Positions 51,986-58,995 of a DNA stretch of 64,000 nt are shown here, piece after piece. Within the stretch, counting starts at the first letter, position 1; each line of letters opens with the position of its first letter. The stretch is from the NCBI RefSeq assembly GCF_963921235.1, contig NC_086097.1, positions 49,230,001 through 49,294,000 of the forward strand, read 5' to 3'. The stretch is from Mobula hypostoma (taxonomy: Eukaryota). Position numbers and translations under genes: made by a program. The notes beneath the pieces are model-generated. The model made no database searches, was not told the DNA's origin, and was given only the letters and a program-made list of their open reading frames with translations.

Positions 51986-52984
51986 AAGAGGTGTGACTCA
52001 TGGACCAATACTGCTGGAACACAAGACAGGGCCTGATCATCCCTAGCTAGGCCGCCTGAGAGAGGGTCTCTGATGTTGAAAGACCCAAAACACCTGATGA
52101 CCCCAGGTTACGTCACTGATGTTGTGTCCCAGTGCATCACAGGATGTGTCCCCGCATCGTAAGGTGCAATGCATAATCATAATTCAAATGAAACTACATT
52201 TTGTCAAGTGTTTATGAGAATGGTTTACTGAAAAACATTCACTACGGATTTAATAATGTTAAATGATAAAATGTAAATTTGTATAAAGTAAATAATTTTC
52301 ATTCATCCTAGTAAAGGATTAAAAGCTAGAACAGAGAGCAAACCTGGCATTCCAATGAGTATAAGATAAGCAAAATCATCCCATCATTTGTTTTCTAATT
52401 TTAATCCAAGCAGGTTATACCATACAGTCTGTACTGATTTTAACATAATGGTCACGTACTTGTGAAATGTTAAGTACATTATATCCGCATGCAAGTATTT
52501 TGTGACTAGTTCAAATTACTGTATACTCTTCCCTTAGCAAACAAACTGCATTCTGTGATAAACAGTGGCAGCAATAGATAGATAATAGCATTGTTCATCC
52601 TGGTAAGAATTGGAAAAAAACTCAATGCGGGTTTTATTTCAAGTGGTACGTATCTATATTACAAATCTTATGTTATCATTTATGAACAGATGATGGACTT
52701 GCTGGTACAGTCAGCATGGAGCAGAATTGCACGATCATATCACACAACTTGAAGGTGTTTGATATCCAATATAATTATCACTACAAGGTAAATTTCACTT
52801 TGCAGGTGTAATGGACACAGTGACACAATCTAGAAGCTTGTGTGCTAATGGAGAACTTCAACAATAATCTCTATACTATGGTAACTGTTGTGCACGGAAG
52901 TCCATAGGGATCAGCATTTTCTGAGATACTCAAACCTCCCCATTTGGCACCAACAATCATTCTACAATCAAAGTCACTTACATA

Positions 52985-54555
52985 TAACATTGAACACAAA
53001 ACAGTACAGTACAAGAACAGTCCATTTGGCCCACAATATTTAGCTGAACCAGCTAAAAAGCAAATCAAAAACACCCAAATACTAATCCTTCCTACTGTGA
53101 CGAGAATACACATAAAATTAAGATGTTTGCTGGCCTGGGTTAGCATCAGTGACATCAGCAAGTGGTCTGCCACCTGCCCTCAGGGGAAGGAGAGATAAGG
53201 AACGATGGAGCAGCGTCTGGAGATGTGTAATGAAGGGACGTGGGAGAGAGAGCTGTCTGGAGCGGCTCCCCCTTTGAACCCTGAACTGTTTGAAGTGATG
53301 GACAGGCGATACCCCAGCAGGGGGATAAAAAGGGACCGGTTTGCTAAGGCAGGACACACGCCACCCGAGGTAACGAGACCCTGGAAGCGGTACGCTTCTC
53401 ACGAGTCGGTGGGAAGTATCAGACAAAGGCCAGGGTGGAAAGGTACGATCAGCGGGAACCCGGTGTGTGTCCGCCCTTGCCTGGGTGCCGGGTTCACTGC
53501 AGAGGATCGACCGCATCTGGAGGAGGGGTCACAGTCGGTGACCTCAGGTGACATTACCAAGGACCCGCCCAAAAGTTGCTTGTGAGCCATATCGTCGGTC
53601 TGTGAGTGAAGCCATGTCTGAATGATCAGTTGTTCCTGTTCTCTGTCCCTCTCCCCCCCACGTTGTCCATCGCCATGGCAACGATTACTGCGAACTGAAC
53701 TACTAAACTGGACTGAACTTTGAGTCACTTTGAAATTTGGTCATTTACCCCTAGACAACGATAGAGCTTGATTGATGCTGTTATCTTAATTCTGTGCACA
53801 TGTGTGTTTATCATTGCTGAACTGTTGCATTTATTATCCTTTCGGTTACTGTGTTGCTTATTTCTTTAATAAAACTTTCTTAGTTCTAGTACTCTAGACT
53901 CCAACTGAGTGATCCATTTCTGCTGGTTTGGCAACCCAGTTACGGGGTACGTAACACTACCTACACCATATCCTTCCATCTTCCTTGCATCCACTTGCCT
54001 ATCCAAATGTCTCTTAAAAGCCTCTAGTGTATTTGCCTCTACCACCAAACCAGGCAGTGTATTCCAGGCATCCACCACTCTCTGAGTAAAAAACTTACCC
54101 CTCACATCCCCTTTGAACATAGCCCCTCTCAGCTTCAATGCATACCCGCTGGTATTAGACATTTCAACCCTGGGAAACAGATACTCTCTGTCCACTCTGT
54201 CTGTGCCTCTCATAATCTTATAAACCTCTCTCAGATCTCCCCTCAGCCTCCACCGCTCCAGAAAAAAACAACCCAAGTTTATGCTGCCTCTTGTGATAGC
54301 AGATGCCCTCTAAACCAGGCAGCATCCTGGTAAACCTCTTTTGCAGCTTCTCCAAAGCCTCAACATCCTTCCTACAGTGGGGCGACCACAACTGTATGCA
54401 ATACTCCAGATGTGGCTTAACCAGAGTTTTATAAAGTTGCAACATAACCTCTTGACTTTTGAACTTAATGCCTTAACTAATAAAAGTAAGCATTCCATAA
54501 GCCTTCTTAACCACCTTATTGACCTTACATAGATTACATTTATCGACCTTACATA
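52985..54555 (-). mobile_element. CR1 3' end interrupted by a solo LTR
   Basis: LYKTLVKPHLEYCIQLW, RLRGDLREVYKIM, FFTQRVVDAWNTLP. Confidence 0.88.
53096..53956 (+). mobile_element. Solo LTR (861 bp), Gypsy- or ERV-type, 4-bp TSD
   Basis: TGTGACG...CGTAACA termini; ctac TSD at 53092-53095 and 53957-53960; TATA-like ggataaaa ~53324, AATAAA ~53868. Confidence 0.9.
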
Positions 54556-56486: not shown

Positions 56487-56588
56487 AGGAAATGCAGATG
56501 CTAGGTTCTGGAGCAAAAAAACAAACCACTGGAGGAACTCAGTGGGTCAGACAGCCTGTGTGGAGATAAAAGGGTAGATAACATTTTC
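56487..56588 (-). mobile_element. PLE 3' end remnant
   Basis: tgcagatgctagg..ctggaggaactcagtgggtcagacagc. Confidence 0.55.
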
Positions 56589-57456
56589 TCATCCAGGCAG
56601 TGTACGATGTGCTTCCAAGCCCATCAAACCTGCACACATGGGGCAAGGCAGAGTCATCTGCGTACCCACTGTGCTCCAAGAGAGGAACCCTGGAGCACAT
56701 CCTCAGCGGCTGTGCAAGGGCACTTGGTGAGGGACGGTACAGGTGGAGGTATGATCAGGTCCTGAAGACCATCGCTGAAGCCGTCAGCGCAGGAGTTGAG
56801 TGGGCGAAGCGGTCCCGACCCTCCAAGCAGACCATTGCCTTTGTCAGAGCTGGGGAGCAGCCAATACCTGCCAAAAGAATATCTGCAGGCATTCTGACCT
56901 CTGCAAGGGACTGGCAGCTGTTGGTGGACCTCGAAGGGCAGCTGAAGTTCCCCAACCATATCGCAGCCACCACCCTGCAACCAGACATTGTCCTAGTGTC
57001 TGAGTCGACTAAGCAAGTGGTGCTGCTGGAGCTGACAGTCCTATGGGAAGATAGCTTGGAACAGGCCTTTGAAAGGAAGCTCTCCAAGTACACAGGACTG
57101 GTCAGCAACTGTCAGCAGGCTGGATGGAGACAGAGGTGTCTCCCAGTAGAGGTTGGTTGTAGGGGATTCATAGCCCGTTCCTTAGCTAGAGCCTTCAGCA
57201 TTTTGGGCATCGAGGGAGAGAGGAAGAGGAGAGCCATCCGCAGTACCACCGATGTGGCAGAGAGGGCCTCAAGATGGCTGTGGCTCAAAAGAGGGGAGCC
57301 ATGGAGTCATAAGTAGCTAGCCATCTGGACACAAGCTGGGGTCTGATCAGCCCCGGCTGGGTCACCTGGAGGAGGTTGTATGATGTTGAAAGACCCGAAA
57401 CACCCGATGATTCCAGGAACATCACCAAAGATGGGTCCAGAAGCATCAGTAGATGT
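56586..57456 (+). mobile_element. HERO-clade non-LTR retrotransposon, 5'-truncated (zinc knuckle, restriction-like endonuclease, 3' UTR)
   Basis: ORF 56600..57316: YDVLPSPSNLHTWG, (C>Y)PLC..EHILSGC, RYRWR(H>Y)DQVL, (R>Q)PDIVL..LLELTV.WE, K..KY, PVEVGCRGF, ASRWLWLKR. Confidence 0.88.
57324..57456 (+). ncRNA. Structured cis-RNA in the HERO 3' UTR (kink-turn plus hammerhead-like core); second copy at 52014-52146
   Basis: Six helices plus a terminal hairpin can be drawn in both copies (some decayed), with two compensatory changes; function unproven. Confidence 0.55.
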
Positions 57457-58995
57457 ATGTACACAGTAGGTTCAAATGCTGCAGCAAATGTTGACAGTTT
57501 TAATAAACAACTTATATTAAGTGTCAATTCATTACAGTTTTTCTGTAATTCAGATCTAATGTAGATTTGTAAAAATGCTTTCAGTATGACACAATATCTT
57601 GATTTGGGTGATTAGGAAGTAACATTTATACTATATAGAGACAATAACCATCTCCAAAATTTAAAAATGCTAATCATATCTGCATTACATTTAGTTGTAT
57701 TATCATTACTAAATACCCTAACATAAATCACTTGGATGCTACCAAGCAGCCACAAAAATCGAATCAAAAACACTTTCACTTGCCTTTCATCCATCAGTTT
57801 TTGCAGTCTTAGGCCAGAGTTAACAAAATATTTTTTTTAACTCCATGTTAAATCCATTGCGCTCCAGCTATAAACTGTGATTAAACTGGATAATTCACTC
57901 CCACAAACGTTGGTGTAATTAACTCAGCAAATAATTGATCGCGAATTCTCAATCCACTGGGTCAAGCTCAGTGCAATTGGCTATCACATTAATTTTGGTT
58001 TATATAACAAAATTTAACTGAGTCAGTGAATGGAGCAGACTGACAGAGATGGGTCTTCAGGAATATCATAAAGAGGGAGAGAGGTAGGAGGCTGAATGCC
58101 AGGCTTAAGGATGGAGTGATAAAATAAGGGGATGTGCAAGAGGTCAGAGCTGCAGAGATCTGCAGGTTCTTCACACTGAGTGAATATGGGGGAGGGGGGC
58201 AAGTGGAGGTGGAAGAAGGATATGCCTTGCAGAGATGCAAAAACGTATGCAGATTTTCAGACAAGGGTTTGAGGTACAATATTTTGATACTTTCTGCATT
58301 TGATCAATCCTCCTATACTTATGATTATGATTCACCATAGTTATTATGAAAGGGACAACTATTCTGAATTCTCTTTGCATGTAATTCTGTACACATTTAC
58401 AGTATTATTTTATATCATAGAGCTTTGCCTGTGAAGCTTAATTTACAATTCAATTATGTCTGCAGGGAATAGTGATGCATTTTATATCTTATTTGAAATG
58501 GCCTGTATAAGGTTGTCTTGTTTTGCTTCAAAGATGAATTTAAATGTTAGCTATGGAATCCTTCTATCTATTTAGATGTATTAAAATAGCAATATTATGC
58601 TTGATGTTACACCTTATGTGGATCTAAGATTTGCACTGAAGCAGTTGCCAATTTACTTGCATTTCATCCTCAGCTAATCTTAAATCCAACTCGCTTGTGT
58701 AAGGCCTACAAAATTTATTGTGCTCTGATGTATACTTGAAAACTCATTTCTTTTAGTGCTTTCTGAGTCAAGCAAGTGGTGTATTTTATCAGTGGGTTAT
58801 CAGCTGCTCAGCCACATTAAGACAGCCTATGAGCAGATTTGAAGTATTGAACAGTAAGTGCACTTCTCTAAAAGCTACTTTCACTGTAACAAAATAGTTC
58901 CAAGCAAAACTGTTGTCATGATCAGAGAGTGCACAATGTTTTTAAAGGACCTTCAGTAATTAGGAAATTTATTTTCTGATTAGTCACAATTCAAA

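Follow-up and report, generated by a model that had tools for sequence, protein, structure and literature searches.

A Conserved Tail Structure of Hero LINEs Resembles a Junction-Interrupted Hammerhead Ribozyme and May Support Replication Through Circular RNA

The 3' tails of Hero-type LINEs almost certainly form a real and deeply conserved RNA fold, in which six covarying helices use each nucleotide once, as judged from comparison of related sequences. This Hero/Zebulon-type tail is probably a self-cleaving hammerhead ribozyme, with a cut predicted, by analogy, after H17. We put at roughly 0.55 the probability that the ribozyme is active and excises a unit-length RNA, which is then closed into a circle and copied for more than one turn, and give the same slightly favourable odds to the circle being the template of Hero insertion; both cleavage and circles are inferred.

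The Host Element and Its Two Copies in the Window

The window is a 64,000-nt stretch of the Mobula hypostoma genome (NC_086097.1, 49,230,001 to 49,294,000; host genome 3.48 Gb) that holds two copies of the tail, both on the + strand. Copy 1 (~56580-57466) is the 5'-truncated 3' end of a member of a young LINE family with 1655 first-look candidate loci in the genome, 40 of which were scored, and its homology with other copies starts ~731 nt upstream of 57310. Copy 2 (51986..52157) is a short remnant of an older family with 2367 candidate loci and carries a decayed version of the same fold, with C52070 as H17. The window also contains a solo LTR-like element (53096-53956) with TG...CA ends and a 4-bp target duplication, CTAC.

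The 5'-truncated ORF fragment of copy 1 (56580..57316, with the stop TAG read at 57314-16) translates into a CCHC knuckle and a restriction-like endonuclease of the PD-(D/E)XK type, both recognised by eye; its 244 aa gave no family match in Pfam. Full-length relatives of the protein have a reverse transcriptase (RT) domain, so that a single ORF combines RT, CCHC and restriction-like endonuclease, the arrangement of Hero clade LINEs (HEROFr, HEROTn, HERODr) and of Zebulon of Tetraodon. The genome contains 46 near-full-length matches with open frames of up to about 1170-1240 aa. Named protein relatives occur in teleosts, lancelets and a clam and in a ray, whose protein is the nearest (91% identity), and the search of viral contigs with the LINE protein returned no relative. 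A close full-length relative is 65% identical over 962 aa to Tetraodon BAC82599.1, which, judging by the order of accessions, we take to be HEROTn, with BAC82598.1 presumably HEROFr.

The cores of both window copies have decayed, as the first-pass annotation of this DNA had cautioned: copy 1 reads CCAAAGA, with lesions at U4 and G5, and copy 2 reads CUGAUGU at 52116-22, with lesions at G10.1, G16.2, G12 and A9. The ancestral core proposed there, CUGAUGA, is borne out for the copy 2 family, where the majority of 30 loci have GUC, GAAAC and CUGAUGA, but not for that of copy 1, where 28 of the 30 best-matching loci read CUGAAGA; the CUGANGA consensus is itself retained in this young family.

Layout of the Fold

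All helix and motif positions originally assigned to the two copies hold on the sequence. In copy 1, the 5' strand of P1 (57324..57333) pairs with 57432-41 except for one A.G mismatch (57331/57434), and is followed by hairpin P2 with its variable loop (57334..57358; 57334-41/57351-58), which together with P1 makes up a predicted four-way junction at the A9/G10.1 step. The 5' strand of stem II (positions 10.1-10.5; 57359..57363) has its partner at 57392-96. Next comes the strand of the non-canonical kink-turn helix (57365..57373, with GA at 57372-73), the counterpart of the SGC 'I' helix (Eckert Fig. 1 legend), and then the 5' strand of stem III with the NUH triplet (57374..57380), where cleavage is predicted by analogy after A57380. 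The segment 57381..57391 consists of a stem I strand (57381-87, partner 57418-24) and a purine-rich linker to stem II.

On the return path, 57392..57405 holds the 3' strand of stem II, GAAA (G12-A15.1; 57397-400) and the 3' strand of stem III, as assigned by descriptor and covariation; stem III (57374-79/57400-05) has one U.C mismatch in this copy. The kink-turn follows at 57406..57417, with a 3-nt GAU bulge (57406-08), the GA at 57409-10 that completes the tandem GA/AG pairs, and the second strand of the helix 57365-70/57412-17. The stem I partner strand and the CUGANGA core occupy 57418..57431 (decayed CCAAAGA at 57425-31), and immediately 3' of A9 lies the 3' strand of P1 (57432..57441), placed by family alignment and covariation. 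The element finishes with a terminal hairpin (57443-47/57452-56) and a 3' end near 57466 (57443..57466) without poly(A), where the ends of the family align; a comparable terminal hairpin was predicted in many relatives, as seen by eye.

An alternative stem II, formed by GACCC with the downstream GGGUC at 57433-37, had been raised as a caveat and is excluded. U stands at 57434 in 29 of the 30 best copy 1 matches, so GGGUC arose by a mutation peculiar to the window copy, and the register is not conserved among the protein-selected loci; P1 and P2 therefore do lie between A9 and stem II. The folding energy of the window copy is unremarkable and uninformative (z -1.2), and nested folding of an intact copy recovers P1 and P2 and not the knot. 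Support for the predicted fold is comparative, not energetic.

Conservation in Relatives Selected by Protein

Relatives were chosen regardless of their RNA. An alignment of 47 endonuclease-region proteins led to metagenome loci, of which the best 80 of 411 confirmed (38-84% protein identity, on contigs without host assignment) formed the set. The descriptor combined the order site-GAAA-CUGANGA with the upstream stem II strand, at most 520 nt from the ORF end, and used as anchors the letters of the core together with a minimum of 3-4 pairs in stems I-III. It matched 55 of 80 loci, compared with 0/80 reverse complements and 0-2/80 in 30 rounds of shuffling; because the same features anchored the descriptor, counts for the core and stems I-III are partly circular. 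Two further loci have the motif beyond the search range, which brings to 57/80 those with CUGANGA, GAAA, NUH and A15.1-U16.1.

Inspection of the 25 misses by eye assigned them to these two, nine tails cut by contig ends, two 3'-broken elements, two deletions, four mutated cores, three intact cores with imperfect stems, and three with nothing. The core is broken in only 4 of ~66 complete tails, at a mean identity of 54%. Some loci (L113, L123, L097, L076) have long 3' UTRs in which the fold lies 460-770 nt past the ORF. The window gave no match at gathering score to any of 4227 Rfam families, and 10 loci searched against Rfam at E values up to 1 matched no ribozyme family, the only matches being weak ones of miRNA type in the flanks of one locus.

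Covariation, Four-Way Junction and Kink-Turn

We parsed 57 sequences, comprising the 55 loci and one intact copy for each local family. With a score that penalised junction linkers, 45 of the 57 have zero linker at A9/P1, P1/P2 and P2/stem II, and 5 more do so if the first pair is U.U (50/57). From these parses, A9, P1, P2 and stem II are predicted to form a perfect four-way junction, and the insertion of P1/P2 that the first-pass annotation had listed as a difficulty is a conserved feature. Standard junction geometry would let stem II remain stacked on the G12.A9 pair, with P1 stacked on P2. The inserted junction could also disable the core.

For the covariation analysis, one row without P1 was dropped and the remaining 56 were reduced to 35 at an 85% identity cut (mean 54%). 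[quoted passage not shown] Pairs 1-4 of P1 form in 30-31 of 31 non-redundant sequences with 5-7 pair types, and the stem II positions are paired in 33-35 of 35; G10.1 is present in 35/35, with the 10.1-11.1 pair being G-C in 31 and G-U in 4. Since this alignment was anchored on pairing, we realigned the core blindly. A structure-blind MAFFT alignment that was made to begin at 10.1 ranks pairs of stems II and I, the two stems that cross, in all of the first 6 places among 2211 pairs, four of them being from stem II. Stems I and III, in a 29-row blind alignment, are 98% paired with 51 double changes, and their score exceeds 500/500 shuffles and every slid register. On a protein tree built from the endonuclease region (rows <170 aa left out), the six tested pairs underwent 8-16 Watson-Crick swaps each.

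Positions on which the descriptor set no letter also show the hammerhead pattern. H17 is A in 8, C in 11 and U in 16 of the 35 non-redundant sequences and G in none; on the protein tree it switches between A, C and U 19 times without ever becoming G, which, assuming equal rates, has a chance of (2/3)^19, or ~0.0005. All four bases occur at N7, and G5, G8 and G12 are fixed. An H17 that is not G, a free N7 and fixed G5/G8/G12 are the catalytic hammerhead signature. In L076 and L077, members of one family, core U3 forms a wobble with G8, and no U3-A8 pair was found. The linker between stems I and II (window 57388-57391) ends in a conserved U/A-A-A/G pattern, with A two bases before stem II in 27/35 and U at 1.7 in 20/35. 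This pattern is similar to the contact between loop II and stem I in fast hammerheads.

The proposed kink-turn, which would bend the stem III extension round to meet stems I and II at their far ends, is supported. The pattern, a 3-nt bulge and tandem G.A/A.G pairs between two helices, occurs in 27 of 35 non-redundant sequences (43/56 in total) and so is frequent but not universal; among these 27 rows, 2n is G in 23, L3 is U in 17 and 3b.3n is A.G in 9. The arrangement of a 3-nt bulge followed by G.A/A.G pairs is that of the Kt-7, box C/D and U4 kink-turns, but unlike those, the predicted Hero kink-turn is embedded in the stem III extension of a hammerhead. The other 8/35 have different bulges in its place. 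L101, L107, L108, L117, L124-L126, L134 and L137 have no kink-turn, yet keep a bulge at the same site of the stem III extension. This retention of the bulge position suggests that the bend is more important than the kink-turn motif itself.

Relationship to Known Ribozymes

The strand order NUH, GAAA, CUGANGA was first thought to be both non-cyclic and new. It is non-cyclic, but it is that of the type SGC hammerheads, which have been described and shown to cleave (Eckert et al., 2023, PMC10085705). Type SGC (HRIMA-1 and variants, PMC10085705) has, like the Hero tail, the order site, GAAA, CUGANGA with a full core, a short linker between stems I and II, and a helix joining the other strands of these stems. 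The Hero fold differs in that this link is closed by a kink-turn and the chain is opened inside block C: the uninterrupted block C of type SGC is absent from Hero tails, and the direct connection (0-2 nt) of A9 to stem II found in hammerheads is replaced in 50/57 by P1 and P2. Known alignments are stated to contain no insertion of more than 1-2 nt between CUGAnGA and its stems (Eckert et al., PMC10085705), the core insertions given in the passages covered of Perreault 2011 are of 1-2 nt only, and a connectivity puzzle for SGC ribozymes is noted (Eckert et al., PMC10085705). By sequence comparison, then, the Hero fold is predicted to work like a type-SGC hammerhead, as a member of none of the six described permutations.

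It is the P1/P2 four-way junction between A9 and stem II, the kink-turn in about 3/4 of sequences and the autonomous LINE setting that are new. A search of mainly the open literature found no description of a Hero/Zebulon ribozyme, tail structure or this junction; the text of the Eckert supplement, figures apart, makes no mention of Danio, vertebrate, kink or four-way, and two 2026 reviews, in their accessible parts, mention Hero only in passing.

Other retroelements provide partial parallels. The type I hammerheads of Penelope-like elements and metazoan retrozymes (PMC7229834, PMC6765202) also reside in retroelements that have tandem or partial-tandem copies and a proposed circular template. 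They are circularly permuted and often minimal or dimeric, and belong to GIY-YIG elements or non-coding repeats, unlike the Hero tail, whose host is an autonomous LINE with a restriction-like endonuclease. The HDV-like ribozymes of R2, L1Tc and RTE LINEs (PMC6765202) share with the putatively self-cleaving Hero tail an autonomous non-LTR retrotransposon host, but have another fold, lie at the 5' end and set the first base of the element, whereas the Hero fold belongs to the 3' tail, and its predicted cut site is read through in inserted copies.

Instead of being catalytic, the tail might be a docking structure for the LINE protein, perhaps with 15.5K/L7Ae at the kink-turn, and its hammerhead letters a look-alike or relic, given that P1 ties up the strand that follows CUGANGA. 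The contiguous stem II in the SGC register is not conserved (at least 4 pairs in only 9/55 loci), a P1/P2-like core insertion is without precedent, and genomic copies reach 86 nt beyond the predicted cut, all of which a docking structure would accommodate. We nevertheless regard docking alone as unlikely: the 5-bp stem II formed with the upstream strand, with G10.1 in 35/35, has the strongest covariation in the blind alignment, so no strand is claimed twice, and the pattern at H17, N7, G5, G8 and G12 is the catalytic signature, in a core that so few complete tails have lost.

Structure of the Inserted Copies

Inserted copies end ~86 nt past the predicted cut, after the terminal hairpin and without poly(A), and this extension implies that the template is something other than a cut linear RNA. 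We read the 5' flanks in the top 12 of the 46 near-full-length copies. Six of the 12 continue into their own 3' end, for 77, 137, 217, 353, 435 and 600 nt, and five of these six run through the predicted cut site. None of the 12 has its 5' end at that site, so that the genome offers no direct footprint of cleavage. Genome searches intended to widen this survey of 5' ends were saturated by full-span matches.

All 40 scored matches of two junction queries span the junction (at least 40 insertions). The 3'-to-5' junction is in one register in 18/18 read, the outer 3' ends are ragged by several bases, and 10 of 12 further junction loci have a 3' end ~3.64 kb downstream. Of 29 metagenome loci whose sequence extends 700 nt or more beyond A9, 13 have a further ORF start downstream. 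No obvious target-site duplications were seen by eye in 10 insertions.

We then compared the two ends of individual insertions. Private variants, meaning those absent elsewhere in the sample, are common to both ends in 5 cases among 4938 sites, where 0.25 would be expected (16 insertions), and the second insertion set alone has 3 against 0.15. At common non-CpG sites the ends agree in 52/56 (40.3 expected) and are discordant in 4/56; in L150 they differ at a subfamily site. Measured over all sites, the ends of an insertion are no closer to each other than to other copies, because post-insertion decay dominates, which left only the rare shared variants to tell. On one contig, L084 and L082, from two Hero families, lie head to tail, one unit apart and 70% identical, which may reflect a template switch, a targeted insertion or an assembly chimera.

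Tandems could also arise, independent of the RNA fold, if the endonuclease targeted the 5' end of an existing copy. The heterologous L084/L082 tandem and the discordance in L150 are what such targeting would produce, although the former may be a chimeric contig. We consider this explanation highly improbable, as private variants are common to both ends ~20-fold above expectation and Hero elements are reported not to be target-specific (PMC3636483).

A somewhat unlikely alternative keeps the ribozyme active but dispenses with the circle: uncut read-through RNA would be the template, or RT, having reached the 5' end, would jump to the 3' end of that RNA or of a sibling, and cleavage would serve 5'-end release, translation or turnover. 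Template jumping is known for R2. Copies keep an intact cut site at both ends, shared private variants establish one source locus and not one molecule, and natural SGC ribozymes are slow, at 0.007-0.19 per min (PMC10085705), all in agreement with this scheme. Against it, an internal junction fixed in 18/18 alongside ragged outer 3' ends fits a continuous template better than repeated jumps, and with an uncut tandem transcript only one end would inherit the private changes of the parent. If the template were a circle formed by two cuts and ligation, the fixed junction, the copies that read through the cut site and the self-renewing partial tandem would be explained.

At the start of the 5' UTR stands an array of short hairpins, four to five in number, whose loops resemble GAAAGA and whose linkers contain GAC; it can be recognised in distantly related families. 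The array is seen just past the junction in L143 (oriented), and after the tail in L068, L074, L075, L084, L087, L090, L096, L098, L114 and L121. It might serve to bind protein or, on a circle, to promote cap-independent translation.

Discussion

In the circular-template model, the fold would be a type-SGC knot that a kink-turn or some other bulge closes and whose chain opens again within the CUGANGA block, with the P1/P2 four-way junction at A9/G10.1. A partial-tandem source copy would be transcribed with a ribozyme at each end, and both would cut after NUH to yield a 3.64-kb monomer with a 5'-OH and a 2',3'-cyclic phosphate, which self-ligation or an RtcB-type ligase would close. The LINE protein would bind near the terminal hairpin, target-primed reverse transcription would be primed ~86 nt past the cut site, and copying round the circle, sometimes for more than one turn, would regenerate a two-ribozyme source copy. 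Precedents exist for single steps: retrozyme monomers circularise with RtcB in vitro (PMC7229834), and a circle formed by double cleavage and ligation was proposed for Penelope-like elements (PMC6765202).

Overall, we see an even chance that the full picture is correct, in which Hero LINEs replicate via a ribozyme-made, protein-coding circle of ~3.6 kb; the ribozyme would be a seventh hammerhead permutation with a junction-interrupted core and a kink-turn-closed knot, the hairpin array would direct cap-independent translation, and kink-turn proteins could switch cleavage. Partial tandem arrays of Zebulon were reportedly described by Bouneau in 2003, and the circle would be the first mechanism for such partial-tandem Hero/Zebulon insertions. 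If true, a hammerhead architecture exists outside the six permutations thought possible, and its knot would be a structural answer to the connectivity puzzle posed by Eckert et al. for SGC ribozymes. The A9/G10.1 step would accept a whole four-way junction and so offer a site for aptamer- or protein-controlled switches. Finally, circular RNA would enter the life cycle of a LINE from the R2 group, whose members are being mined for gene insertion tools.
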